From contig WRKW01000001.1 of assembly GCA_009777955.1 (NCBI GenBank), positions 21,986 through 85,985 of the forward strand: a stretch of DNA of 64,000 bases. Reading direction: 5' to 3'. Positions 6,544 through 64,000 of this stretch are shown piece by piece (position 1 is the first letter of the stretch; the number at the start of each line of letters is the position of its first letter). Position numbers and translations under genes: made by a program. This DNA comes from Alphaproteobacteria bacterium. GTDB lineage: Bacteria; Pseudomonadota; Alphaproteobacteria; Rs-D84. Under the pieces are notes generated by a model. It was not told the DNA's origin and did no database searches. It worked only from the letters and a program-made list of their open reading frames with translations.

Positions 6544-8556
6544 ATGAAGTTTAGCTTTCGCATTTTTGCCCTGTGCTCTGTACTTTCTATTTTTCGCGCC
6601 GATGGCGCGGTGCCTACTAATTCGCTGACACCCACGATTCAGGGTGGCGGAACCAATAATCTGACCGCGTTTACTGGAAATGTGGGCGCGATGAATAATA
6701 ATGCCTGGAATCAATCCATACAGGGGGATCGGGGTGGCGGCAACAGCGCGACTGCGGATTTTGGAAATTGTCGCGCCGTGATTTCAAGATGCGCTTCGCC
6801 GCGTTGCGGAAATGGCGGATGTACGGATTTTATGGTTGCGGCGGGAATTGTTAATGGTTGTGTACAGTCGAACGCATCTTGTCGACAGTATGGCGACGAC
6901 CTGGTGAATGCCATGGCTGCGGAACTGGTGGCTAATTCTACATCCCGGGCTAACCAGCAACAGGCACAGATGGCACAGCAACAGGCCGCGGCGGCGGCGG
7001 CATCCGATGCCGCGGCGGCGCAACAGATGGCACAGATGCAACAACAAATGGCCACCCAGATGCAGGAAATGCAGGCACAGATGGCCGCACAACAGGCAGA
7101 ATCCGCCGCACGGGTAGAAGCCGCACTGGCCGAACAACGTCAACAGGCCAGCCAGCCCCAGTCCGCACAGTCGGGTACGGATAACCAGCTGGCCCAGGCA
7201 TCTGACGCGGCCGCAAATGCCGCCGCGCTGGGGATTTCTGCGGATGTATTGGTACGTGAACAGGCTTCGGGTCAAATATTATCAAAATTGGATAATGTAA
7301 AGGCGGCGTTAAACCGCGCCAGGGCGGCGATGCAGGAAACTTTTGACTATGCCGGATGTAACAGACAGGGGGATCATTGCGCCGGTGTTCCGCGCGTATC
7401 GGCGTTTAAAGCAAAGGCACAGGCATTTTTCGAACCGTATGATGAAACCATAGATGAAGTATATGACGCATTAATAATGGCACAGGCATTGGGTGTGGAT
7501 ATAACGGATATATATATGATGTTGAATGGAAGCTGTCATGTATGGGGTCAGTATGCGTGTTCAAGCACTCAGGTAGTGAGATATGAATTGTCAGAAACTC
7601 TCGCAGAACGTGAAATTGTTGACGGAAGTTCCACGACGAAAACTAAAAATGGTCTTTGCAGGTGTGACTCAATACCACAAGGCTCTCCGGGGGCTGGTAT
7701 GATCGATATAAATAATTGTACGGATGCGTATGGAAATAAGTGTAAACCCGGTGCGGTTGTACCCATGAATGCGGGTGGGTGTCAATTGATGCAGATGCTG
7801 ACCGATACTTACACAGTGCAACAAAACTTTTTGGATTCATATACTGGAAGTAGCAGTGGTTCCAGAATTGAACTTGCATGTGCATCCGAAGCTCTAGAAC
7901 AGAACAAACTTTTTGCCCGTCGTAAAAAAGGTTCGAATATAGACATAGAATTATTGGAATATATGCTTGCGGTAGAAGCACCGAATTACCAACCGCGGAG
8001 TGGTAATCCAGCGGATAATTTCCAGTTCTGCTCTGCAAAAGATGTTGAAGTATTGCGCCGTGTTGTCCAGACCAAGAGATTGAATGAAAGAAATATATGT
8101 GTGGGGCAAAGTATGTTAAATAAAGGGCAAACCCTGGGTACAGTGGTTGCTGCCGCCCAGCCGATAAATATGATTGAAGTCGATGGGTTTTGTAAAAATT
8201 CGTGCATACAAGACGAAGAAAGTGGAGAATATAATGTAATTACAGATAATAGTGCTAAATTATATAGTGCTTTGCGAGATAATAGTTTTCATGGTGTGAC
8301 GGGAAATATAAGTAAGCTTTTGGGGGATGGTATAGATACCAAAGAAGACTGTGTAAAGGAATGTATTAAAGAAATGGAAAAAAAATTAAAGGACGATTGT
8401 CAGTCGGATGAGCATGGACCAAAAGGTACTTGGGATATTCTCCATTGTTCTTGTCCAAATAATTCAATTCATGTCCCGGACATTAGGGGTTGTAAATGCC
8501 CAACGAATCTTCCTGTTTGGGTAGGAACAGACGGTCCATGTGTGGCAAACGAATAA
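6544..8556 (+). CDS. Large secreted Cys-rich protein with a Gln/Ala/Met-rich coiled-coil-like linker (paralog of 40652-42838)
   Basis: 670 aa. Signal peptide MKFSFRIFALCSVLSIFRADG. Motif NCRAVISRCASPRCGNGGC. Low-complexity QQAQMAQQQAAAAAA..QMQEMQAQMAAQQ. 28 Cys by my count after the signal peptide. C-terminal CPTNLPVWVGTDGPC. AGAGAG SD-like sequence before the ATG. Confidence 0.75.
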   Translation: MKFSFRIFALCSVLSIFRADGAVPTNSLTPTIQGGGTNNLTAFTGNVGAMNNNAWNQSIQGDRGGGNSATADFGNCRAVISRCASPRCGNGGCTDFMVAAGIVNGCVQSNASCRQYGDDLVNAMAAELVANSTSRANQQQAQMAQQQAAAAAASDAAAAQQMAQMQQQMATQMQEMQAQMAAQQAESAARVEAALAEQRQQASQPQSAQSGTDNQLAQASDAAANAAALGISADVLVREQASGQILSKLDNVKAALNRARAAMQETFDYAGCNRQGDHCAGVPRVSAFKAKAQAFFEPYDETIDEVYDALIMAQALGVDITDIYMMLNGSCHVWGQYACSSTQVVRYELSETLAEREIVDGSSTTKTKNGLCRCDSIPQGSPGAGMIDINNCTDAYGNKCKPGAVVPMNAGGCQLMQMLTDTYTVQQNFLDSYTGSSSGSRIELACASEALEQNKLFARRKKGSNIDIELLEYMLAVEAPNYQPRSGNPADNFQFCSAKDVEVLRRVVQTKRLNERNICVGQSMLNKGQTLGTVVAAAQPINMIEVDGFCKNSCIQDEESGEYNVITDNSAKLYSALRDNSFHGVTGNISKLLGDGIDTKEDCVKECIKEMEKKLKDDCQSDEHGPKGTWDILHCSCPNNSIHVPDIRGCKCPTNLPVWVGTDGPCVANE

Positions 8557-40651: not shown

Positions 40652-42838
40652 TTACTGTGTGATTGTACATGTACTACCAACCCATGTGCCGCTTTTATTT
40701 TGACACCACATTTCATCCATAAAATTGTCTTCGCTTGCACTATTACTTGTTACTGTACCTCTAGTGACGCTTAAACAGGTTTTTGAAATAGATCTGCATG
40801 CATCTCTTGCGATAGATTGGGGGCGCGCATCATCTTGTTTCCCGCCACTATTCTGGTTTAAACATGTTATAACATCCATGACGCAGTTTTCAGCATGACT
40901 TGCGATTACTTCATCTTGTTTAGTTTTTATTTGAAAAAATACACGTTTCAAAAATTCTTTTGTTCCCATGTTATCTGGCTTGAATACTCTTCTGTTTGCT
41001 GGACCTCTAAATGATACATTTTGGCATTTATTCAATACGGATATGCACATGCCATGACTTTTTCCATCTTTCTCGTTTACCCAACCAATTTTGTTCATCA
41101 TGGAAACCAACAACACAGATGCTTGAGGAATGTGAGGGTCAAACCCTTTAGCAGGATCCGATGGAGTAAGCTCATTAAGTTTATCCAACATATCATCTAT
41201 AGTACCAGCACCGTTTCCGCTTAGCCAAGGATTGGCAGATGTTCTACTTGTTCCATAACTCCAGACTTTATAAATTCCTTCGCTGGCAGGCGATGTAACA
41301 GTATCAAAATTACCTGGCATACTTCCCGGCACAAGAGCTCCATTAACTATGAATTTACCTGTCGGATCAAGGCAGTTTTCATAATCGCTGCCACAAACGA
41401 AATCATTCTGCATACAGGCATCAAGTGCGTTTACACAACCTTTCATATCATACATATTCTTGCTTTGTGCAACTGCAAGACGTGCGCGTTCCAATACTGT
41501 CTTTGCATTTTTTACAGTCCGGCGCATATTGGTGTTCGCATCGTCCAGACTGCGTTCGTATACTATGCATTGGCGGTCGATTTCAAGATCGTACGAATTG
41601 GAAAGTATTGTAGTGTCGACACCCTGGCGGCGACAATTTTCAAGAACAGACCGTTTGCATTGGGTAGACGCGCTTTTGTACAGTTCCGCCCCGCGCATAT
41701 TTATAATGTTGCCCCCCCCGCCGAAATTAAACAAAGAGCCAAGGTCGAAACCAAAATCAGAATCAAACGACATCTCAAAATCCAGTGACAGACCTTCGTC
41801 TGAAAATGTCGCGCTGGTCGGCTTTAAATCAAGAACCAACCTTCCAATGCGTGCTATATCGGCCGCATTCTGTGTGGAATCCACGGTGCCGGCCATTGCT
41901 GCTTCGGCTTCTGTTGCGCTGAACAGACTTATGACTTCATCTTTGGTAAGGCCGATATATTGTATTTTACGCGCAACATCTTGTAATTCTTCGGTGGCTT
42001 GTTTAAGGGTACTTTCCAGATTTCTGTATTTTGTTACGCTGGCACTGCATGAACAACGACCCTGGTTGTCATCAAGCACCGCGCAGTATCCATCCATACA
42101 TGAAAAATATTGTGCCCGACAGAAATCTGACAGCTGTGCAATTTCTTCCATTGTGGGTCCGGACATCTGCATTTGTCCCTCTGCACTGCGTGCAGTGCTA
42201 TTGCCAAGGCTGCCGCCGCCTATGCTGCTGTTCCTGCGTATCGGTGTGCCGCGGGCAATCCCACTGCGTTCAGTATTTGCCGGGGTATAAAGAGATCCGC
42301 CGGCGGCTTGGGTAACACCGGAACGCGCCGTATTTACGTTTTGTATTGGTTGTCTGGGGGTGGTTGCCTGTGCCGTTGGTGCGTTTTGCGCCGGTACAGC
42401 CTGTGCCCCGCCGGCCGCACTGCGCATGGCGGATGCAGATCCGCCCGTTGCCATTGCACGGGATGTTTGGGCACCCGAACCCTGGGCATTTATTATATTT
42501 CCAGCGGTAGTTACAGGAACCGCAGAACGCGAAGCCACAGCACGTGTTTGTACTGTGTTCCCCGATCTATCCGCTGGGCGTGTCGCACCCTGAACACCGG
42601 GCACCGCACCGCCACCCCGTGCCACATTGCGATTGATTGTCGCACGTGGATTAATATTTACAGGTTTTGCCGCAACCGGGGCAGTGGATGTTGATGCAGA
42701 TTCAAGCTCTGCCGTTTCTTCTATGGGTTCAACTTCGTCCGCGTATTCATCGGCATACCCGAAATATTGGGCGGGCGAAATCTCTGCAACCGCAGGAAAT
42801 GCAAGCAGTCCAAGCATAGCGAACAAATATTTTTTCAT
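40652..42838 (-). CDS. Large secreted Cys-rich protein with an Arg/Ala/Gly/Ser/Thr-rich N-terminal linker (paralog of 6544-8556)
   Basis: 728 aa. Signal peptide MKKYLFAMLGLLAFPAVAE, about 200 aa of low complexity, then FCRAQYFSCMDGYCAVLDDNQGRCSCS, helical segments, KGCVNALDACMQNDFVCGSDYENC, and C-terminal WCQNKSGTWVGSTCTITQ. 20 Cys by my count. Confidence 0.75.
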   Translation of the reverse strand: MKKYLFAMLGLLAFPAVAEISPAQYFGYADEYADEVEPIEETAELESASTSTAPVAAKPVNINPRATINRNVARGGGAVPGVQGATRPADRSGNTVQTRAVASRSAVPVTTAGNIINAQGSGAQTSRAMATGGSASAMRSAAGGAQAVPAQNAPTAQATTPRQPIQNVNTARSGVTQAAGGSLYTPANTERSGIARGTPIRRNSSIGGGSLGNSTARSAEGQMQMSGPTMEEIAQLSDFCRAQYFSCMDGYCAVLDDNQGRCSCSASVTKYRNLESTLKQATEELQDVARKIQYIGLTKDEVISLFSATEAEAAMAGTVDSTQNAADIARIGRLVLDLKPTSATFSDEGLSLDFEMSFDSDFGFDLGSLFNFGGGGNIINMRGAELYKSASTQCKRSVLENCRRQGVDTTILSNSYDLEIDRQCIVYERSLDDANTNMRRTVKNAKTVLERARLAVAQSKNMYDMKGCVNALDACMQNDFVCGSDYENCLDPTGKFIVNGALVPGSMPGNFDTVTSPASEGIYKVWSYGTSRTSANPWLSGNGAGTIDDMLDKLNELTPSDPAKGFDPHIPQASVLLVSMMNKIGWVNEKDGKSHGMCISVLNKCQNVSFRGPANRRVFKPDNMGTKEFLKRVFFQIKTKQDEVIASHAENCVMDVITCLNQNSGGKQDDARPQSIARDACRSISKTCLSVTRGTVTSNSASEDNFMDEMWCQNKSGTWVGSTCTITQ

Positions 42839-51539: not shown

Positions 51540-52547
51540 TTACGGACATGTGGAAAGCAGGTGTATAACCGTCGCAACATCATCGCGTATGGATACGGTT
51601 CTTTCGCGACGTAATCCGTCGTAATAAGTGTAATTCAATGGTTGTTCTTCAAATTCAGGCGTGGCATGCGCTATCTGGGCAAATGGTGCAAGCATGGCAT
51701 CAAAAAATTTGCGGCTTCGGCACAGACAGGTGTCGCGGACGCTTGCGACAAGCTCTGCCGTTGTCTGGTCGGGGGCATGTTCGTACAGATAGTTATCCTG
51801 CATCATCAGGCATCTTTCACTGAAATGAAAAAAGTTGGCATCATCCAAAATGAATTTATATATAAAATCGTTTGACGCGCCAGCACGTTTTAACTGGTAC
51901 ACAATACCATCCATGCAGCAAGCGCGCGAACTTGCCATCAAAGTCTTGTATCTGTTCAGCAGGGGTCTGACACCCGGTGCATTCGCGTCGATTTCTTGTC
52001 CGGCTTTTGAGAACGATGATAATGCCATCACGCTTCCAGAATCTATTTTTCGGGGCATTGGCGCGACAGTTTCGCGAAAGTGCGGTTTTGTTTTCCAAAT
52101 CGTACATTCCGTTTCAAATTCAAAAGGACAACCATCGGTTCGTGTAAAAGTTTTGTTTCCATCCGTGTCAAAGAATTCACCGGTTTTTACTTCCATTATT
52201 CCAAACCGGCTGCCACCGTGTTGTCCAGTGGCCAAAAGCTCCTCTATCAGACGTTCTGTTTCAAAATCGCGATTTTCCAGCCTTAGAATTTTTTCACGTT
52301 TTTCGGGCAGGCTTGTTATCCGAACGGCTTTTGGTGTCTGGTCGTTTTCAGACAGAGAGATATTTGAAAGTTCAGATGATTCCTGAGTGTCGTCGTGATA
52401 AAATTCTCCGCGGGACCAAAAATCCCAATCGTCCGATGCATAAGCGGACACAACCGGGAACAGATAAAAAATAATATAAAAGGAGAACAGCCCGCAACTT
52501 AATGAACGGGCAAAAGGATGAAAATTTTTATTATCAGCCGCATTCAT
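51540..52547 (-). CDS. Hypothetical exported/anchored Cys-containing protein inserted between the Skp-like gene and lpxD
   Basis: 335 aa. N-terminal hydrophobic segment GLFSFYIIFYLFPVVSAYA. Motifs DGCPFEFETEC, SSRACCMDGIVY and RDTCLCRS. No family recognised. Confidence 0.6.
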   Translation of the reverse strand: MNAADNKNFHPFARSLSCGLFSFYIIFYLFPVVSAYASDDWDFWSRGEFYHDDTQESSELSNISLSENDQTPKAVRITSLPEKREKILRLENRDFETERLIEELLATGQHGGSRFGIMEVKTGEFFDTDGNKTFTRTDGCPFEFETECTIWKTKPHFRETVAPMPRKIDSGSVMALSSFSKAGQEIDANAPGVRPLLNRYKTLMASSRACCMDGIVYQLKRAGASNDFIYKFILDDANFFHFSERCLMMQDNYLYEHAPDQTTAELVASVRDTCLCRSRKFFDAMLAPFAQIAHATPEFEEQPLNYTYYDGLRRERTVSIRDDVATVIHLLSTCP

Positions 52548-53496: not shown

Positions 53497-54123
53497 TTAT
53501 CTTGTCACAGGAGAAATTCTTATTTCAACACGACGGTTCATAAGTCGTCCTATGTTCGTCTGATCTGATATAGGCCGTGCGCTGCCCCTTCCCACAACGA
53601 ACATGCGGACTGGTTTTACTTTGTGTTGAGCCATGAATAAAGCCACGCGTTCCGCCATGTCAAAACTGAACGCGATTGCAGAGTTTTGATCGCGCATGGC
53701 ATCGGAATAGCCAGCTATTTCAATATAAGTCCGGTCGTATTTCGCCAGGACTTTGGAAAGTTGGTTCAGGGTGTCGGCACCGTCACTGGAAATATCCGGA
53801 TGATCAAGCGACATGAATGCGTCGCGCACCATGACAACCAACGCGTCTCCGCCTATGCGGGTAATCTGAATCCCCGGTTTTCGTAAAGAATCCGAAAGTT
53901 CTATTTCCAATGCGGACATATAGGTCGCGACTTCTTGCTGTTCAAGTGTTTTGCCGCCGGCACCCAAATAAATAGGTTTTTTTGCTACCTTTGATGTTTC
54001 CGTCATTGCCCCAAAGCTTGCGCCTTTTAAGATGGTATCCCAGGTTCCGCGTTCCGGTGTTTTGTATCCGCCGCAAGAGCAGAGCATGGTTAACAAAGCA
54101 CAGAGTATAGATATTTTTTTCAT
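53497..54123 (-). CDS. OmpA/MotB-domain peptidoglycan-associated lipoprotein
   Basis: 208 aa. MKKISILCALLTMLCSCGG is a lipobox-like sequence. The C-terminal IEIAGYSDAMRDQNSAIAFSFDMAERVALFM....VGRGSARPI......RLMNRRVEIRI is the OmpA-C-like motif set. Confidence 0.8.
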   Translation of the reverse strand: MKKISILCALLTMLCSCGGYKTPERGTWDTILKGASFGAMTETSKVAKKPIYLGAGGKTLEQQEVATYMSALEIELSDSLRKPGIQITRIGGDALVVMVRDAFMSLDHPDISSDGADTLNQLSKVLAKYDRTYIEIAGYSDAMRDQNSAIAFSFDMAERVALFMAQHKVKPVRMFVVGRGSARPISDQTNIGRLMNRRVEIRISPVTR

Positions 54124-54124
54124 T

Positions 54125-54619
54125 TTATTTCACCACGAATGTTACTTTGTTTTTTTCATCACGCTTGCAATTTTCGGCGGGCAGTCCTTCGTAAAAGTCG
54201 TTTATCCGGATGTCTGTGACCCAATCGAAATGTTGTGTCGCAGCCCAAGAGCAGTCGGCAAAGCTGACACCATGAAGATTAATTTGAAAAACACTGCCCT
54301 CCTGTTCGGGAAAAAGGTCGAATTCACTTGCTATGGATATCGCGGCACCAGTTTTCAGCGCGCCCATTTTTATAAGATAACCGACAGATATTCCAGTATA
54401 GTTGTTTTTTCCGGCGAATAAAAGTCGGCTGTTGCGCGCGATATCTTTAAGATCTTCTGCTGCTATCATACGATCCTTGCGAACCTGTACAGATTGATAC
54501 ACTTGGAATGTTCCGGCAATCATAATCGCACCCAGAGCCATGACACCAACAACTTCTATCAAAGATCTGCCGCTTTCAGCTGTATGAGATGTAAAGCGTG
54601 ATATATTGTTTTTAATCAT
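54125..54619 (-). CDS. Type IV pilin / pseudopilin-like protein (atypical prepilin leader)
   Basis: 164 aa. Leader MIKNNISRFTSHTAESG, then RSLIEVVGVMALGAIMIAGTF with Glu at +5 after the Gly. This is followed by an amphipathic helix, a beta-rich body and a C-terminal Cys pair (..FADCSW....AENCKRD) resembling a pilin D-region. The stop lies 1 nt from the next gene's start. Confidence 0.5.
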   Translation of the reverse strand: MIKNNISRFTSHTAESGRSLIEVVGVMALGAIMIAGTFQVYQSVQVRKDRMIAAEDLKDIARNSRLLFAGKNNYTGISVGYLIKMGALKTGAAISIASEFDLFPEQEGSVFQINLHGVSFADCSWAATQHFDWVTDIRINDFYEGLPAENCKRDEKNKVTFVVK

Positions 54620-56423: not shown

Positions 56424-58901
56424 TTACAATATCGGTGGGAAGCAGTCGCCGTCGCCGGATGCAGGACAGCAAGAACCAGTGGGTGAATCGGGGCTGGTAA
56501 CGCTTGGGTCGAATACTTCACCCATGCTTGCACAACAGCCTTCATGATCCGGTGGGCTTCCGTCATCACAGCTTATACCCATAGAAACAGCGGGTGGTGG
56601 CGGTGGTGGTTTTTCAAATGGGTTTTTCAGCATGGTGCCGGCATCATTATATTGCAGTCCCAAAATCTGTTGATTATATTCCTGGGAACTCGGGGCCAAT
56701 ATTTGACCGCTTTGTGTGGTTATTCCGCCACGATTGCTTAAATCTTGCCAATAAGTGTTATATGCGGCTTGGGTTCTGCCCTGGTACATGTTTGATTTGC
56801 ACCAGAATTCCGCAGCCCGATAATCCAGGCCTTTTGCTTGTAATTGAGCTGCATCAAGTGCAACTTCGCCGGTATTGTTGCCATTATTATCTGTTTCACA
56901 AACGCCTTGCATGCTGGTGGTAAACGCGCGAACCTGTCCCATCCATTCTTCGGGGTTGTTTGACATTTTCAGTTGGTTGCTTGGATTTACATAAGGTCTG
57001 TAAAATTCGCTGGGGGCATGGATTGCACATTTTTTATTTTCGATACCTTCCTCGCCGCATGTTACTACCAGATCGGTTGGCGAAAATACTGTTATTCTGG
57101 TTCCGGCTGCGATAGAGAATGGCGGGGTGGTATTTTCCAACATATCCATGGTAAGTTTTTGCACAACCTTGTTCCAGGTGGATATTATTTCCTGTTTTGC
57201 AAGTTCGCTGGAACGAACTTGTCCGGACTGTGTCACTGTATTGTTATCAAGATCAATCTGATTCACGAACCTGTCCGATATAGGCGCGATAAGGTTAACG
57301 GCCGCAGGAACCACAGCTGTTATCATGGGCATAAGCATACTTTCTATATAGTCTGTGGTTCCGTATCCTGGCACTCCGGCACGACCCTGGCTGTCGGCGG
57401 AAAACGGTTCTTGATCGCCTGCAAAATTAAATTCCACGCCATCCGGTCGTACAAATCGGTACCATTTTATATCCATTCGTCCTATGGATCTGTATGGCCC
57501 TGGCAGTTCGCCCGTCATGAAACCCAACATCATGGTTCCGGCCGGAACTATTATTGTGCGGCCGTTATCGGAATATACGTGGCGATCGACAGTTGCTGTG
57601 ACCGGCAGATGCGACATGCGCTTTGGATCCGCGCGAATTTCTGAAACGATTGTCGCCGGTATAGGCTTGAACTGGCGCAGGACAAATGTACGGTCGTGTG
57701 GAACGCTGGATACGGTCGCTTCGGCACCTATGGAAGATGGCAAAAGACTGCTGACTGTTCTTTGTTCTCTCATTTCTATACGGGTGGCTTCGCCTGCCGC
57801 CGGGGTTGGGGCTGATGATTGTTGCGCCCTGTTTATTGTGCGACCGCTTCTTGCGCTGGAAAGATTTGGCAGGGCAAGATTTGCAGTAACACTGCGTGCA
57901 CCGATACGTTCTGAATCAGAGCCGATTGTCTTTGATTTATTCTTTATGTCATAAATCAGACCAGTATCCGGATTGTATTCGCCCGTGGGATTATTGCAAT
58001 CTCTGTCACTGAACGGATGGTACATATACCGACCGCCGTCTGCACGAATCCATCCAGAATGTCTTCCAGATAAATTATATCCAGCAAATGCGAATTCGTA
58101 ACACAGCTCTGCCGCTGGTGTAGCATCAATGATTACATCATTGGAAACTGGGGCTTGGGGACGGGGTTCCGGCACAGGCAACGGTTCTGGTTCGAATTCG
58201 GGTTCAAATTCTTGTTCGTACTCTGGTTCGAAAGGCAAATCTTCTTCAAAAGTAAGATCCGGTTCCAATGAATCAAAAACAGGGTCGATTTCTTCAAAAA
58301 TAAATGTTGGTTCCGGTTCTGTTATGCTGAACGGTTCTGTGTTTTCTATATTCGTTAATGTTTCCGGTTGGCGGGCGGGTATATTTTCATTTTTTGATTC
58401 TTTCGCCGATAACAGAACTGGTAACTTTTCCATTTCCGACATGCTTGCCGGTTGGGTTGCCGAATGATATATTATCTGGATTTCCGCACCAGTATCTTTC
58501 AGCGGAACATCCGGTTTGAATTCCAATGTTATGTTGCATGGAACTTTTGGCGAAATTACCCCCATGTTAGTGCAAGTGGAACGCTGGGTCAGCCCATGAG
58601 AATCGGGATCTTCCAATCCGGCGATTTTAACATCTGCAATCTTTACATCCGTTGTTGCTGAAACTTCGATTCTTTGGGTTCTGGTATCGCCGACCGTGAC
58701 ATCGCGCCATTCTATTTCAGTCGTATCCAGCACAATACCGATTTTTACAGCGGTGGTTGTTCTTTGCGTTTTTTTCGGACTGGATAATACTAGCAAAAGT
58801 AAAATCACTACTACCAGAAACGCCGCGAACAAAAGCAACCATTGCACATGAACAGGCAACTGTTGTCTAAGATTTGTGAAAAATTCTTTAAGTTTGCTCA
58901 T
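56424..58901 (-). CDS. virB10: VirB10/TrbI-family type IV secretion core protein with an extra N-terminal module and a Cys/Pro-rich C-terminal extension
   Basis: 825 aa. N-terminal TM WLLLFAAFLVVVILLLLVL, acidic/Pro-rich EPEFEPEPLPVPEPRPQAP, and TrbI-like core IPATIVSEIRAD..VTATVDRHVYSDNGRTIIVPAGTMMLGFMTG...GRMDIKWYRFVRPDGVEF...SQGRAGVPGY...AGTRITVFSPTDLVV. A tail of about 212 aa with 10 Cys and PPPPPP follows. Confidence 0.8.
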   Translation of the reverse strand: MSKLKEFFTNLRQQLPVHVQWLLLFAAFLVVVILLLLVLSSPKKTQRTTTAVKIGIVLDTTEIEWRDVTVGDTRTQRIEVSATTDVKIADVKIAGLEDPDSHGLTQRSTCTNMGVISPKVPCNITLEFKPDVPLKDTGAEIQIIYHSATQPASMSEMEKLPVLLSAKESKNENIPARQPETLTNIENTEPFSITEPEPTFIFEEIDPVFDSLEPDLTFEEDLPFEPEYEQEFEPEFEPEPLPVPEPRPQAPVSNDVIIDATPAAELCYEFAFAGYNLSGRHSGWIRADGGRYMYHPFSDRDCNNPTGEYNPDTGLIYDIKNKSKTIGSDSERIGARSVTANLALPNLSSARSGRTINRAQQSSAPTPAAGEATRIEMREQRTVSSLLPSSIGAEATVSSVPHDRTFVLRQFKPIPATIVSEIRADPKRMSHLPVTATVDRHVYSDNGRTIIVPAGTMMLGFMTGELPGPYRSIGRMDIKWYRFVRPDGVEFNFAGDQEPFSADSQGRAGVPGYGTTDYIESMLMPMITAVVPAAVNLIAPISDRFVNQIDLDNNTVTQSGQVRSSELAKQEIISTWNKVVQKLTMDMLENTTPPFSIAAGTRITVFSPTDLVVTCGEEGIENKKCAIHAPSEFYRPYVNPSNQLKMSNNPEEWMGQVRAFTTSMQGVCETDNNGNNTGEVALDAAQLQAKGLDYRAAEFWCKSNMYQGRTQAAYNTYWQDLSNRGGITTQSGQILAPSSQEYNQQILGLQYNDAGTMLKNPFEKPPPPPPAVSMGISCDDGSPPDHEGCCASMGEVFDPSVTSPDSPTGSCCPASGDGDCFPPIL

Positions 58902-58940: not shown

Positions 58941-60437
58941 TTATTGTATTCTTACCACATGACAGGCGACCGATTGGAACTTTTGCAATTGGTTGCAAAG
59001 CGTCTGAGCCTGATCTATGCCCGCCAACGGGCCGATACGCAGACGGTACAGTCGGGCAGAGCTGTTACCACCACCCAAATCGCCAACACCTTGTTCATCT
59101 ATTGCGAAGAACACTTTATCCCTGTAAGGAGTCAAGATTCCCGCGCCCTCATCACCGCTGAACTTTGCAAGCATCGTAGTCCAGTAATCATTAAGTGCCT
59201 TTACCGATGTGTCGGATCGCAATTCTACCGCGACACCAGCCTGATTGCTTGTAATCAGCGGTATGTTTGTTTGTGGCAGATATGATCCCGCAGTATTGCG
59301 TTGTTGTGGTACCATGTTCAGACCCGGGCTGCCCAAAGGCATAGTTGTTGGCGCACCGTGCATTTGTTGCATCGGCATCATCGGAACTTGTTGCATTCCG
59401 TACATCTGCTGCATCTGCATCATTCCACCATCCATCACAGGCATGCCAAAATAGCCAACATTGTTAAGTGATTGGGACGAATGCATGCTGCGTGCGACAT
59501 TTGCTTCTGCCAGGGCCATTACGCTTGCGGTATCTGCGATCAAGAATGGCTTTTCACGTTTCTTGATGCATACAAGCCGTTGACCGCTGCGCAGAACCAT
59601 ATCGCCGACCGCTTCGACGATAAGCAGGCGACCGTGTTCTCCATCAGTCCTGAACCCTACTGGACTTTCACCGCCTTCGATCAATATTGATACAACGGGT
59701 CGCTGTGTCATAGCGATGACTTTGTCTCCGAAATCGATATAGGTGAATATGCGGTCGCGCCATACGCGTTCCGGGGCAATAACATAATCGTCGGGATTTG
59801 GAACGAATATATCCAGATCGAACCGGAATTCTGATGGATCTATTTTCATTGTTTTTATCCAGCCATAATCTTCGCCGTCTGCCCCAATTGTATTGGTTCC
59901 GGCACCACTTTTTCTGGGAAATATTGAATTCATTCCGCCGCCGCTTGTTTGTCCGGCAGATGCAAAATTAACGGGCATGCTTGAATTGCCATCCAGTACA
60001 ACATCGACCTGGGTATATGTGATTTCCGATGAATTCGATGGTTCGGATCGCAAATAGAACAGGTATATGTTCCCGGATTTTCCGGTGACGATAAGGTTTG
60101 TGTCAGACCCCATATTATTTTCCAGCGGGGATATAAGCATTGTGCGACTGCCTTTTTGGACATCAAACTTGAACAGGCCATCACTTCCAATATCCCCCGC
60201 TTCAATCGCTTCCCCCTGGGGCAGATTTACCATGGTAACCATTCCAGTGCGCAGTTTTATTGGCAAGATTGTGCCAGAGCTCCAGGTAAGCCTTGCATAT
60301 CCGGGTTTCAGTGAACCGGCGGCCATGTTGGCTTCTGGGTGATCCCATGCCTCTTGGATATTTGCGTGCGCCTTTCCGATAAATATGGAAAAGCAAAACG
60401 CAAGGCACAAGGCGCAAAGCATAGATAGTTTTTTCAT
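58941..60437 (-). CDS. virB9: VirB9/TrbG/CagX-family type IV secretion core protein fused to a Met/Gln-rich linker and a SPOR-like domain
   Basis: 498 aa. Signal peptide MKKLSMLCALCLAFCFSIFIGKAHA. N-domain ..LPIKLRTGMVTMVNLPQGEAIE...TNLIVTGKSGNIYLFYL. C-domain IAPERVWRDRIFTYIDFGDKV..RPVVSILIEGGESPVGFR..LLIVEAVGDMVLRSGQRLVCIKK. Then MMQMQQMYGMQQVPMMPMQQM, and finally ..LYRLRIGPLAGIDQAQTLCNQLQKFQSVACHVVRIQ. Confidence 0.8.
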   Translation of the reverse strand: MKKLSMLCALCLAFCFSIFIGKAHANIQEAWDHPEANMAAGSLKPGYARLTWSSGTILPIKLRTGMVTMVNLPQGEAIEAGDIGSDGLFKFDVQKGSRTMLISPLENNMGSDTNLIVTGKSGNIYLFYLRSEPSNSSEITYTQVDVVLDGNSSMPVNFASAGQTSGGGMNSIFPRKSGAGTNTIGADGEDYGWIKTMKIDPSEFRFDLDIFVPNPDDYVIAPERVWRDRIFTYIDFGDKVIAMTQRPVVSILIEGGESPVGFRTDGEHGRLLIVEAVGDMVLRSGQRLVCIKKREKPFLIADTASVMALAEANVARSMHSSQSLNNVGYFGMPVMDGGMMQMQQMYGMQQVPMMPMQQMHGAPTTMPLGSPGLNMVPQQRNTAGSYLPQTNIPLITSNQAGVAVELRSDTSVKALNDYWTTMLAKFSGDEGAGILTPYRDKVFFAIDEQGVGDLGGGNSSARLYRLRIGPLAGIDQAQTLCNQLQKFQSVACHVVRIQ

Positions 60438-60511: not shown

Positions 60512-61192
60512 CTAAAAATCCAGCGGATCCCTGCCACCTTCAACCGTATATTCCGACACAAATATACCCAGCGGGTTTTCAAGACGACTTGCCCATTTTA
60601 TGGTATTATCGTCATTACGGTTAATTTTGAAATCTATTCCTATGATAATTGTATAATCTTTTCGGCCTATTTGTAAAGCATTATCCTCGCAGAAATATTT
60701 GAAATTTACTTCGTATGTCGAATTTCCCCTTTCGCCGCGTTTCAAAAGACTTACGGGGCGATCCGCAAATTCGACCCGGCACACCAGCCTTGAATCCGGC
60801 ACGTTGGTCATTATCGACTGGAACATCCTTGTCTGTGTGAATGCGTTATAGACTTCGGAACTGGACCATATGTTGACCATTCCGTTTTCACCCGTCCACC
60901 ATTTCCGTCGCATGACATTGATATTTGGTATGATTTCATTGCGGACTTTTATATATTCCCTTACAAAGTTTTCCTTGAATTCTTCGATATTCGCATCATT
61001 CGGAAAATAAGATCGCACGGTTATATGGCTGTCTGCGCGTGGTTCAGTGGTAAGAATGAAAATTTGGGTTTTCGACAGGGGCAAAATGTTGGACAAAGTC
61101 ACGACCAGTGCGACAACGGTCGCGAGCGCGGTCGCGAACACGAATGTCAGGATTCTGGACATTAAAATAGGCGGTTCTATGGTATTCATCAC
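60512..61192 (-). CDS. virB8: VirB8/TrbF-family type IV secretion inner-membrane protein
   Basis: 226 aa. Single N-terminal TM ILTFVFATALATVVALVVTL, FVREYIKVRNEI (family-typical F...Y...re.y) and C-terminal ENPLGIFVSEYTVE (NPLGF.V..Y motif). Confidence 0.7.
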   Translation of the reverse strand: MMNTIEPPILMSRILTFVFATALATVVALVVTLSNILPLSKTQIFILTTEPRADSHITVRSYFPNDANIEEFKENFVREYIKVRNEIIPNINVMRRKWWTGENGMVNIWSSSEVYNAFTQTRMFQSIMTNVPDSRLVCRVEFADRPVSLLKRGERGNSTYEVNFKYFCEDNALQIGRKDYTIIIGIDFKINRNDDNTIKWASRLENPLGIFVSEYTVEGGRDPLDF

Positions 61193-61383: not shown

Positions 61384-64000
61384 TCATGTCAATTGTTTAT
61401 CGATCATTTGGATTTGTTTACTAACTTCTTCCTGCTCTTTAATAGATTGCTTTTGGCTAGTTTTCTTTTCTTTTTTCAACTTATTAATTTTAAGTTGTGA
61501 TGCCTTGGCAGCTTTGGCTTTTTCGGCCTTTTCTTTTTTGATTTCTGCTTCTAATTCGTCGTCTTTTTTCGTTCCTTTCTCTTTTACTATTTCCATCTTT
61601 TGTGTCAGCCTTCTTTTCGCTTCTTTGATAAGTTCCTCTTTATGCTTAGACACTTCTTTTTTAACAATGTTTTTCGATGCTTCGATGTTGTATCTGGCAC
61701 TGTCGTTATCCATTATCTGTTTAATAGTTAAGCTTTTAGCATGGTTGATTCCCGGTTGATGTTTTTTTAGTTCCGTAATTGTTTTTGGATCTGTTACCCG
61801 CATCCTTTGTTCAGCAAGTTGGTTGATCATTTCAGGGGTCGGATTTTGACCCAGCATCTCTAACAATTCGTTCAGAAGTTTTTCAACAGTCTGAAAATTC
61901 TTTACATTATTTAATACTTCCATTAAGTTTCCGGCTTGTTTTATCTGTTCCAGCGTAAGGCTTTGGATATTTACACCATCTATATCCAATGTCTTTTTTA
62001 ATTTATCCAGTGTTTCTCTTTCATTGTCCGAGAATTGTCCTATACCAAATAATTTCCTTAACTTTTCGGCGCGTTCAGATTCTTCTTTCGAAAGATTCGG
62101 GTCGTCTTTCATGGCAAGTATGTTTTTTAATGCTTCCGATATATTTGCGGCTTTTTTACGATCCCAGTCCCCATCTCTCAGTTGAATTTTTAATTCTTCA
62201 GCGTGTTTCAGGTCTTCTGATGTAAGAGATCCAGATATGCTTCCTTTATTCAGTATTCCTTTTAATTCTTTTTTTACCGTTTGTTCAAAATCATCTAAAT
62301 GATGCTCGCTTAATTCATTTCTTAATTTTTCGGCATCAATTTCAACACGTTGAAGTTGCTTCGGTGTAAGGCCGGATCTGTTCCCTTTTCTTAAAACTTC
62401 TTCCAATTCTTTCAGTTCTTTTAATTTTTTGTCCAGCTGTATTTGCTTAATGCGATTGTTTTCTTCGATAGATTCCCTTTTGGGATCATCCAGGATGGGT
62501 TTTTCATCTGGGTTATCTATATCTGGGGCATCAACCCTGTCATCTGGTGTTAATGGCTCATCTTCGGATATTTCACTTTGGCTATCTATATCGTCGGATT
62601 TATCGGTGCCCGGTTCTGGCATACCGTCTATATCTGGGGCATCAACCCTATCATCTGGTGTTAATGGCTCATCTTCGGATATTTCACTTTGGCTATCTAT
62701 ATCGTCGGATTTATCGGTGCCCGGTTCTGGCATGCCGTCTATATCTGGGGTATCAACCCTGTCATCTGAGATTATAATAGGGATAGATGAGTCCCCACTA
62801 TCATTTGAGATTACAATAGGAATAGGTAATGGAACAGGTGGTTCTTTATCATTATCGGTTTCAACGTTTACGTTTTTTCTCCATATCTCAGAAAATTTTT
62901 GGATTTTTGTTGTCTTATAAACTTTTTCTTTTTCCTCTTCTGAAAGTTGCGCAAAGGCAGTTTCATAAATTTTTCCGATTTCAGGATTCAGATCTTTACC
63001 CATATTCGCAAAATTTTCAATATAATCTTTATCATCAAAAGCATCCTCTCCTATAAGATGATCGAATAGCATTGGTTTGTTATTTACCATTGCGCATATG
63101 TCATCAATGTAATATCCGAATTTGTCGTTATATAAGATGATAATATCTTTCCAATCTTTCGAAAGTTCCGGTTCAGCAGTTTTTTCCACACTTTTTTCCC
63201 AAAAATATTCGGAATCAAAAAGTTTGTTCTTTTTTTCGATCTCTTTTTTCAAATTCTCGATAGCCTTTTTGTCACCGGCCATTGCATCATCAAACAATTC
63301 TTTTGCAGATTTATTTTTGCCGGGATTATCGAAAAATTTCTTTATCTCGGCGGCTTTATCTTTTAACTTGTTACCAATTTTTTTGGCTTCATTTATACCC
63401 CTATCAATTAAACCGTCGGGTTGTTTTTTTTCTGTTTGATCATGCTGAGAGTCCTCTTCGTTTGTTTTGTCGTCTATGTCTCCGGGGCCTATGCGATATT
63501 TGTTATTTTCTGGGTCTTTGGGCCATTTATTCACACTGGTCATTATCATGTTAAAAAATTGCTTAAATTCTTTTTTTTCAGATTTTTCAGATGCATCGTC
63601 TTCTGCACGCCAGCTTTTCAGAAAACGGTGAATTCTATTGTGGTTGCTGGTTATCTGTATCGCACCGTTAAATACTTCGTATCCATAGTCATCCCCAGAG
63701 AAATTTATATATATAGCATTGGGATAAATATGTATTTCTGATTTTTTATCTTTCAAGTCAGATTTTAATTGATTCATAAACTTTTGATAAGGAATATTTT
63801 CGTAATGTTTTTGAATCTTTCTATCGGTATCATCTTCTTGGCGAACTTTTTCCATAATTTTATAAAGATCAACATTGCCATCTTTTTGGGCTTCCAAAAC
63901 TTTTTGTATAAAATCCCTTGTTCGCCCGGGGGCAAAAGTCAATTTTTTTCCGGAAGTTTTGGCTTCTAAATGTGTGCATATTGATACGACTTCGTCAAAA
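61384..64000 (-). CDS. Very large Lys/Glu/Asp-rich repeat-containing protein (N-terminus probably outside the window)
   Basis: The track ORF is 852 aa from TTG 63942, but the frame stays open to base 64000 (..FDEVVSICTHLEAKTSGKK-LTFAPG..). There is no TM or signal peptide in the visible part. It has acidic 37-aa tandem repeats, recurring '(K/T)(P/L)EQ..(L/I)xxAExL' helical units and a poly-Lys/Glu C-terminus. Confidence 0.7.
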   Translation of the reverse strand, partial: FDEVVSICTHLEAKTSGKKLTFAPGRTRDFIQKVLEAQKDGNVDLYKIMEKVRQEDDTDRKIQKHYENIPYQKFMNQLKSDLKDKKSEIHIYPNAIYINFSGDDYGYEVFNGAIQITSNHNRIHRFLKSWRAEDDASEKSEKKEFKQFFNMIMTSVNKWPKDPENNKYRIGPGDIDDKTNEEDSQHDQTEKKQPDGLIDRGINEAKKIGNKLKDKAAEIKKFFDNPGKNKSAKELFDDAMAGDKKAIENLKKEIEKKNKLFDSEYFWEKSVEKTAEPELSKDWKDIIILYNDKFGYYIDDICAMVNNKPMLFDHLIGEDAFDDKDYIENFANMGKDLNPEIGKIYETAFAQLSEEEKEKVYKTTKIQKFSEIWRKNVNVETDNDKEPPVPLPIPIVISNDSGDSSIPIIISDDRVDTPDIDGMPEPGTDKSDDIDSQSEISEDEPLTPDDRVDAPDIDGMPEPGTDKSDDIDSQSEISEDEPLTPDDRVDAPDIDNPDEKPILDDPKRESIEENNRIKQIQLDKKLKELKELEEVLRKGNRSGLTPKQLQRVEIDAEKLRNELSEHHLDDFEQTVKKELKGILNKGSISGSLTSEDLKHAEELKIQLRDGDWDRKKAANISEALKNILAMKDDPNLSKEESERAEKLRKLFGIGQFSDNERETLDKLKKTLDIDGVNIQSLTLEQIKQAGNLMEVLNNVKNFQTVEKLLNELLEMLGQNPTPEMINQLAEQRMRVTDPKTITELKKHQPGINHAKSLTIKQIMDNDSARYNIEASKNIVKKEVSKHKEELIKEAKRRLTQKMEIVKEKGTKKDDELEAEIKKEKAEKAKAAKASQLKINKLKKEKKTSQKQSIKEQEEVSKQIQMIDKQLT
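62516..62768. repeat. 111-bp tandem repeat (2.3 copies) inside the giant gene
   Basis: Units start at 62516, 62627 and 62738 (TCTATATCTGGGGCATCAACCCT..), differ by a few substitutions and encode DRVD(T/A)PDIDGMPEPGTDKSDDIDSQSEISEDEPLTPD on the minus strand. Confidence 0.9.

Follow-up and report, generated by a model that had tools for sequence, protein, structure and literature searches.

The window analyzed here is a stretch of 64,000 nucleotides from an alphaproteobacterium of the order Rs-D84 (GenBank assembly GCA_009777955.1, contig WRKW01000001.1). It encodes a VirB10/TrbI-family protein that continues for 212 amino acids (aa) past the VirB10 beta-barrel. In type IV secretion, VirB10 connects an energy source at the inner membrane with the outer-membrane pore. 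The tail is a real addition past the barrel, and it is a lineage-wide architecture in uncultured gut Alphaproteobacteria, namely Candidatus Enterousia / order Rs-D84 and termite-gut relatives. Its first ~160 aa form a stalk with a Pro-rich linker at the end, and the last 48 aa form a module with six cysteines. The module appears to be a portable, separable envelope domain of these reduced-genome bacteria. The tail could well be a lineage-specific, disulfide-stabilized periplasmic appendage, a docking module on a tether, through which the outer-membrane core complex of the type IV secretion system (T4SS) would be linked to a shared envelope partner; this is a tentative reading that we place a little short of probable. 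The gene and its main parts are as follows.

56424..58901, minus strand: VirB10/TrbI-family open reading frame (ORF), 825 aa, stop codon included in the coordinates; identified by Pfam and NCBIfam, with an identical ORF in a second assembly
58782..58844, minus strand: N-terminal inner-membrane anchor, ~aa 20-40 (WLLLFAAFLVVVILLLLVL), read from the sequence and near-invariant among homologs
57066..57698, minus strand: VirB10 beta-barrel domain, aa 402-612, from NF038091, PF03743 and PDB sequence matches to CagY and ComB10
56427..57062, minus strand: C-terminal extension, aa 614-825 (212 aa)

The VirB10 tail and its conservation

The barrel can be said to end at about aa 612, because the Pfam, NCBIfam and crystal-construct alignments all stop at aa 611-612. 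Pfam TrbI (PF03743) matched aa 413-611 (model positions 7-186 of 188; 59.8 bits against a cut-off of 35), NCBIfam T4SS_VirB10 (NF038091) matched aa 402-612 (positions 5-190 of 197), and residues 46-231 of 246 in the ComB10 crystal construct 2bhv aligned to aa 412-612. The best PDB sequence match to the barrel was the C-terminal domain of CagY (residues 1686-1812 of 1927). Since the NF038091 score of 59.8 lies below the equivalog cut-off of 220, the protein is a divergent member of the family; it has at most 57 % identity to any GTDB representative and 61-64 % identity to its best ENA relatives. The codon for T614 begins at nucleotide 57062, L825 is the last residue, and the stop codon occupies 56424-56426. 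An earlier note on this DNA, made from the sequence alone, had proposed an extension of about 212 aa after the barrel. Its coordinates were exact, and the alignments place the tail outside every VirB10 model and thus outside the conserved part of the family.

Ten cysteines are present in the 212-aa tail and four in the first 613 aa (binomial P = 2e-5 for the tail, with a background of 0.88 % Cys taken from 14 other genes of the window). These ten, together with the two CC pairs (789/790 and 811/812) and the poly-Pro run (PPPPPP, 765-770), are as the earlier note had described them. A search with the full-length protein gave 802 relatives, and the best 120 of these measure 749-905 aa if complete and mostly align over 100 % of the query. 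From these 120, 117 full-length homologs were drawn. The tail follows the barrel in all 117 and is 182-226 aa long. A word-index search with the tail alone found a single protein, which reflects the sensitivity limit of that search and not rarity of the tail. In the homolog alignment the Cys positions are conserved at 95-100 %: C615 and C625 at 99 %, C668 and C701 at 95 %, and C778, C789, C790, C811, C812 and C820 at 100 %.

The number of cysteines is even in each of the 117 tails (6 in one, 8 in five, 10 in 91 and 12 in 20). Both C668 and C701 are missing from the 8-Cys tails, C615 and C625 are additionally missing from the 6-Cys tail (P0038), and the 12-Cys tails have two extra cysteines within the middle subdomain. 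This strict parity, with gain and loss by whole pairs, indicates that the tail cysteines form intramolecular disulfide pairs. An even number of cysteines was reportedly described by Dutton and colleagues in 2008 as a classic sign of disulfide use in exported proteins.

It is very improbable that the module is a metal-binding domain, in which the vicinal CC pairs would coordinate Zn, Cu or Fe in an anaerobe unable to oxidize thiols. Vicinal cysteines are common in metal sites, and no Dsb-like protein was seen in the window and the fetched flanks. The organisms are also anaerobic fermenters without respiratory chains (PMC12306168). However, the even counts with pairwise gain and loss in 117 of 117 tails are at odds with this possibility, a conserved His is absent, and the window encodes several further Cys-rich exported proteins.

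The possibility that the tail is a separate downstream gene, joined to virB10 by a frameshift or a misassembly, can be practically dismissed, and no point was found in its favor. A second ENA contig is 100 % identical over 15,060 nt and contains the same uninterrupted 825-aa gene. The same uninterrupted architecture is found in more than 117 proteins and at the loci of 80 GTDB genomes from many independent studies, so the frameshift that the earlier note had considered does not explain the extension. Stand-alone tail genes were not found among the hits; the short hits were N-terminally truncated fragments or members of a small secreted family that is described below.

The distribution of the tail was explored with a scan of one genome per GTDB species. 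The query was an alignment of 16 full-length VirB10 proteins; a single-protein query picked unconserved peptides and gave no matches. A VirB10 relative is encoded in 293 genomes, and the loci of the best 80 of these were fetched. The terminal six-Cys module ends VirB10 in all 80. Each of the 80 is a metagenome-assembled genome, and complete chromosomes of 0.72 and 0.96 Mb are included. They are labeled Candidatus Enterousia, Alphaproteobacteria or 'Rickettsiales', with a few evidently mislabeled bins, and they come from the guts of humans, mice, chickens, ruminants, horses and termites. Enterousia has been placed in the order Rs-D84. Members of this order are described as having genomes of less than 1 Mb and an incomplete glycolysis, as lacking a respiratory chain and as probably dependent on a partner; the genomic study of this order makes no mention of secretion systems (PMC12306168). 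A literature search found no paper joining Rs-D84 and type IV secretion. Among sequencing runs, the nearest was a single DNA run from a termite gut, with 6 % of the words, and no RNA run matched. The DNA of the window therefore derives from a relative of this group that has not itself been sampled.

The tail can be divided into the following parts.

57027..57059, minus strand: first Cys pair, C615...C625, in a short loop right after the last barrel strand (aa 612-626)
56922..56945, minus strand: W-x-G-Q-V-R-[SA]-F motif, aa 653-660, from the homolog alignment; G655, Q656 and R658 are invariant
56736..56921, minus strand: middle subdomain with C668...C701, then a Q/N-rich helix, aa 661-722; the Cys pair is lost jointly in the 8-Cys variants
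56616..56681, minus strand: Y-N-x-Q-x-L-G-L-x-Y ... N-P-F motif, aa 741-762, from the homolog alignment; Y742, N743, L747, G748, Y751, N760 and P761 are invariant or nearly so
56571..56615, minus strand: Pro-rich flexible linker, aa 763-777 (EKPPPPPPAVSMGIS); P/A/E-rich and of varying length in homologs
56427..56570, minus strand: terminal six-Cys module, aa 778-825, C-x10-CC-x20-CC-x7-C-F-P-P-I-L

A variable linker lies between the Cys-clamped loop (aa 612-626) and the motif at aa 653-660. The module of the window belongs to a minority form in which FDPSVTSPDSPTGS stands in place of YTDMGxQGFN, so that the insert separating the two CC pairs is longer.

The tail alone was modeled with AlphaFold 2 (AF2) from a 32-sequence alignment, which gave a mean predicted local distance difference test score (pLDDT) of 77.7 and a predicted template modeling score (pTM) of 0.37. 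Confidence was highest at aa 782-815 (pLDDT 93-95) and aa 662-701 (89-92), was ~60 at aa 612-661 and lay at 71-78 between these. A helix was predicted at low confidence (pLDDT ~60) for the motif at aa 653-660. The prediction thus indicates a tail of confident pieces with an undefined mutual arrangement, and the folded pieces with high pLDDT are the module and the C668-C701 subdomain. The module alone gave a pLDDT of 84.9 and a pTM of 0.63, with two short hairpin strands and the rest in loops.

The six-cysteine module on other proteins

The earlier note had proposed a search with the tail alone, and no Pfam, NCBIfam or PDB relative was detected. Scans with Pfam and NCBIfam gave no match within the tail, and the tail profile against all PDB sequences matched only an antibody (E = 0.54). 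A full-length profile against the PDB had a sensitivity no better than that of a single sequence. With Foldseek, the best TM-score for the module alone was 0.34, and no granulin was among the matches. Thus the module appears to represent an undescribed domain family, in the sense that it has no detectable relative and not that it is a proven new fold, small disulfide-rich domains being hard for these tools.

The module has a likeness to granulin and LDL-receptor class A domains, with ~45 aa, six cysteines, CC pairs, a Gly/Asp/Pro-rich composition and, in the model, short beta-hairpins. When 33 module sequences were compared with Pfam at E up to 10, the sole match was Granulin (PF00396), in 1 sequence, at E = 2.5. 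Kinship with either family was rejected on this E-value and the TM-score of 0.34.

The module was also found on proteins other than VirB10. Among 1.84 billion cluster representatives, the tail profile matched 281 (E up to 1e-3), and the classes given here cover 147 listed representatives outside those fetched earlier. VirB10, whole or in fragments, accounts for 25 of the 147. A bitopic family of ~700 aa accounts for 28; these proteins have a conserved N-terminal cytoplasmic domain, a coiled coil, a transmembrane (TM) helix at ~aa 500-560, ~200 aa rich in P, E and A, and then the module. Another 43 belong to a family of 160-325 aa in which a signal peptide is combined with helical hairpins bracketed by Cys (one or two per protein) and with 1-3 modules. 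Proteins of 130 aa or less are represented by 41, some of them mini-proteins with a hydrophobic N-terminus directly before the module and others that are probably fragments. The remaining class, with 8 representatives, is made up of other proteins.

The module of one bitopic protein, P0159, is 82-88 % identical to Enterousia VirB10 modules, and the remaining parts of the proteins do not align. The bitopic family has at least 775 relatives, which are hypothetical proteins of alphaproteobacterial metagenome-assembled genomes and have no Pfam domain. A few of them are labeled CdvB/Snf7-like by JGI, probably owing to the coiled coil. In one genome the bitopic gene (loci L081/L082, 10001-12022) lies beside gcrA among housekeeping genes, and a cluster with a prepilin peptidase and a GH108 lysozyme-like gene is found nearby.

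In 31 of 34 metagenome loci, on contigs of up to 0.94 Mb, the gene of the small secreted family comes right after a conserved block of genes on the same strand.

Loci L083-L116 (for example L087, 5869-10597): 455-aa protein without an assigned identity, FtsX/MacB_PCD permease, ABC ATPase, 225-aa protein likewise without an assigned identity, then the module gene

The transporter genes of this block are 77-100 % identical between loci, and the last two genes are only 27-68 % identical.

The module also occurs on inner-membrane-anchored proteins and on Sec-secreted proteins that do not belong to a T4SS, which argues for a general envelope module over a part of the channel. No other copy of the module was found within 10 kb of virB10 in the 80 genomes, and a search with the module profile found no second module within the window.

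In 143 of 145 module-bearing proteins, no more than 7 residues follow the last module, and in 100 of the 145 no more than one does. This strictly terminal position suits a C-terminal sorting or attachment tag, in which the module would direct proteins to an envelope site with a logic like that of the C-terminal domains of type IX secretion or of PEP-CTERM. The module is shared by unrelated secreted and anchored proteins of one lineage, across four architectures, and its terminal motif C-F-P-P-[IL]-x is invariant, as a tag would require. Such a tag nevertheless seems improbable. Multi-module proteins have internal copies (three modules in P0141 and two in P0158), and the module is predicted to be a folded disulfide domain, which is neither a TM helix nor a short signal. 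The destination of VirB10 is already defined, and the analysis found no cognate sorting enzyme, nor is one known.

A possible docking function

In canonical VirB10, an inner-membrane anchor is followed by a part that spans the periplasm, and two helices of the barrel cross the outer membrane and return (PMC6536674). The protein of the window appears to have the same bitopic layout, with a short cytoplasmic N-terminus, one TM helix and a Pro-rich, acidic periplasmic region. This topology was read by eye in the sequence, from the hydrophobic segment at aa 20-40 and an E/P-rich region at ~aa 175-250, which are conserved in homologs. A hydrophobic helix-loop-helix at aa ~517-590 (~57135-57350, minus strand) is the putative antenna and is very highly conserved. 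The polypeptide after the antenna helices is back on the periplasmic side, so by analogy with the canonical topology the default and most parsimonious location of the tail is the periplasm. Paired cysteines fit this compartment. The putative antenna, including its loop FVNQIDLDNNTV, ranks with the best-conserved parts of this VirB10, and its conservation was high enough for it to serve as the pattern for the genome scan. In canonical VirB10 the antenna loop is variable and disordered (PMC6536674).

The earlier note had suggested that the tail could be surface-exposed, or could plug or extend the channel. It is quite unlikely that the module instead reaches the cell surface, as an adhesin or an extension of the channel that contacts a partner or host cell. 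Small disulfide-rich domains do suit an extracellular setting, and the mini-proteins may be cleaved into free 45-aa modules. MacAB-TolC-type transporters can expel periplasmic peptides, and the small secreted family is encoded downstream of a MacB/FtsX-type ABC pair in 31 of the 34 loci. The Rs-D84 lineage is also thought to live off other cells (PMC12306168). However, all sequence past the antenna helices is periplasmic in the canonical topology, and fourteen 212-aa tails cannot thread a channel that is built of their own subunits. The module is also found a few residues past inner-membrane anchors, and neither a signal nor a machinery for its export was found.

The architecture of the module-sharing proteins suggests a docking function. 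The module is terminal, it sits on a Pro-rich leash, and it is common to anchored and soluble exported proteins under the same tight constraint; for these reasons a docking domain is favored. The tether is a P-rich leash before the module in VirB10 and a P/E/A-rich segment of ~200 aa in the bitopic family. In VirB10 the stalk would consist of the Cys-clamped loop, the two conserved linear motifs, the C668-C701 subdomain, which is optional, and the Pro-rich leash. Given the usual 14 VirB10 subunits, 14 copies of the module would hang from the outer-membrane core complex of each machine. Each could bind a partner that is common to the other module-bearing proteins. Candidates for this partner would be an envelope protein, the cell wall, the inner face of the outer membrane, or other copies of the module. 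Docking of this kind would anchor or organize the T4SS in the envelope, beside VirB9 with its wall-binding SPOR domains. VirB10 can function with a globular domain appended to it, since a VirB10-msfGFP chimera in Xanthomonas forms periplasmic foci and the cells still kill; the fusion site is not stated in the part of that report consulted (PMC7286519).

Several points weigh against docking. No binding partner of the module was identified. The other module-bearing genes do not adjoin T4SS genes, so a specific tie between the module and secretion is not evident, and because the mini-proteins have the module right after an anchor or a signal peptide, its partner need not sit at the outer membrane. 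Oxidation of the cysteines is also a concern: a motif search of the window and ~2 Mb of related flanks found no Dsb/thioredoxin-type CxxC proteins, and respiratory chains, which bear on the thiol-oxidizing machinery, are reported to be missing from Rs-D84 (PMC12306168). The AF2 models are of single chains and not of the 14-mer ring. Lastly, AF2 confidence is low for the two conserved linear motifs, and a large part of the tail may therefore pack against the core complex, as a ring and not as a leash.

This last point leads to the main alternative, which we regard as somewhat unlikely. The 14 tails would pack on each other and on VirB9 and VirB10 as an added layer of the core complex, forming an extra ring or plug, and the module would be a brick without an external ligand. 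Such a layer would be comparable to those added in the Cag or Dot/Icm systems, except that it would have arisen by domain accretion. The motifs W-x-GQVRSF and YNxQxLGL...NPF are invariant and have only moderate model confidence when the tail is modeled alone, as expected of interface segments. The triad of secretion genes lacks virB7, so that a stabilizing role may have shifted into VirB9 and VirB10, and 14 x 23 kDa would be a large mass. A structural layer is harder to reconcile with the presence of the module on non-T4SS proteins, tiny secreted ones included, with the variable length of the stalk (tails of 182-226 aa) and a middle subdomain that is dispensable in some lineages, and with the flexible P-rich leash ahead of the module.

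A wider form of the docking reading is unlikely. The module would be the common plug-in of an unrecognized Rs-D84/Enterousia envelope network, a C-terminal domain for attachment or adhesion throughout the lineage that joins the T4SS core, the bitopic proteins and the secreted proteins, and it might be displayed at the surface to hold and feed on a partner cell. If this were true, the VirB10 tail would couple the position of the secretion channel to cell-cell contact.

Secretion genes, neighbors and comparison with known systems

Two further secretion genes are found upstream of virB10.

58941..60437, minus strand: VirB9/CagX homolog, the upstream partner gene, with its own C-terminal SPOR domain (SPOR stretch aa 462-495, 58953-59054)
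60512..61192, minus strand: VirB8 homolog, first gene of the virB8-virB9-virB10 triad

The order virB8-virB9-virB10 is found here and in 74 of the 80 related loci. In all 78 of 78 loci VirB9 is extended at its C-terminus by a linker rich in M, Q and P and by a SPOR domain, which binds peptidoglycan. The SPOR match (PF05036) of VirB9 in the window scored 20.2 bits against a cut-off of 21, and all six tested homologs passed at 21-31 bits. We know of no description of a SPOR-fused VirB9. A D-Ala-D-Ala carboxypeptidase of Enterousia (locus L007, 19340-20458) also has a C-terminal SPOR domain, and SPOR fusions seem to be used repeatedly in this lineage.

The triad lies amid housekeeping genes. In the window these are dnaX, an OmpA-like gene, skp and lpxD; in an Enterousia chromosome they are nusG, rplA and yidC. 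Genes for the VirB4, VirB11 and VirD4 ATPases and for virB2, virB3, virB5, virB6 and virB7 were not found within 10 kb of the triad in the window or in Enterousia locus L007.

VirB10 also has two extra periplasmic regions ahead of the barrel, and both hold a Cys pair that is conserved in the homolog alignment. The first, aa 56-132 (58506-58736, minus strand), has a weak match to the Ig-like Cep192_D4 and the pair C110/C122. The second, aa 260-350 (57852-58124, minus strand), has the pair C267/C302 and the very conserved pattern FAFxGYNLSG...GWIR...HPFSD..C..PTG.YNPD.G. Neither region is a Pfam family. With the VirB10 tail, the SPOR domain of VirB9 and these conserved pre-barrel regions, the core complex has been enlarged by domain fusion onto standard subunits and not by added subunits.

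Other genes around the triad were also noted. Directly upstream of virB8, 61384-64000 (minus strand) encodes a very large K/E/D-rich protein, which is 972 aa in locus L117 (6136-9054). A 37-aa unit (DDRVDAPDIDGMPEPGTDKSDDIDSQSEISEDEPLTP) is repeated in tandem in it, in 2.3 copies, and it also has long coiled-coil-like sequence and a low G+C fraction of 0.36. There is no Pfam or NCBIfam match to it, and the 80 related loci show no conservation of it; a surface protein or something like an effector is possible. At 54125-54619 (minus strand), a 164-aa ORF begins like a type IV prepilin (G/RSLIEVVGVMALGAIMIAG) and matches PilS weakly. The next gene, at 53497-54123 (minus strand), resembles OmpA-family lipoproteins, and both lie just downstream of dnaX and virB10.

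The window also contains three Cys-rich exported proteins without a Pfam match, at 6544-8556 (plus strand), 40652-42838 (minus strand) and 51540-52547 (minus strand); the 670-aa one has 29 cysteines. Together with the tail, they suggest heavy disulfide use in the envelope of this organism. The earlier note had seen an echo of the first two, which it called paralogs, in the tail. This likeness is one of composition only: homology of the tail to them was rejected (BLASTP E > 2), and the module profile finds no other match in the window. Compared with each other, these two ORFs are marginally similar at best (E = 0.043).

The protein of the window resembles canonical VirB10/TrbI proteins (Agrobacterium tumefaciens VirB10, pKM101 TraF, Xanthomonas citri VirB10 and Helicobacter pylori ComB10) in its anchor, its acidic/Pro-rich region and its barrel, and its gene likewise comes directly after virB8-virB9. 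The canonical proteins end ~2-15 residues past the barrel models, whereas this protein adds 212 aa with five conserved Cys pairs and, unlike them, has the extra conserved periplasmic regions ahead of the barrel. CagY of the Cag T4SS and DotG of the Dot/Icm system are also core subunits that were enlarged by lineage-specific additions. In both, the VirB10 domain remains at the C-terminus and the added parts precede it, in contrast to the C-terminal addition here; the match to CagY at residues 1686-1812 of 1927 fits this difference. Lineage-specific C-terminal extensions on T4SS subunits are known from VirB7 (N0 domain) and VirB8 (AQGP-rich) of the X. citri type (PMC6536674). These differ from the tail in that they are on other subunits, in another lineage, and have no Cys-rich module.

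TonB and TolA offer an analogy of design only, with an anchor, a long P-rich spacer and a small C-terminal domain, as in the P0159-like family and in VirB10. No sequence or fold relation between TonB/TolA and the module proteins was detected, and no TonB-box partner is known. SPOR fusions such as FtsN and DamX are a likeness to VirB9, and the VirB10 tail has no SPOR similarity. The SPOR domain of VirB9 still parallels the tail, as both are C-terminal acquisitions, and SPOR is a bona fide wall-binding module.

We know of no other VirB10 family with a conserved C-terminal domain past the barrel. The variable part of VirB10 has been described as the N-terminus (PMC6536674). The proteins described here would make up a VirB10 family with a conserved post-barrel domain, in at least 293 species-level genomes that were matched. 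The carriers are an abundant uncultured gut lineage with genomes of less than 1 Mb, and the six-Cys module marks a set of their envelope proteins that is worth joint study.

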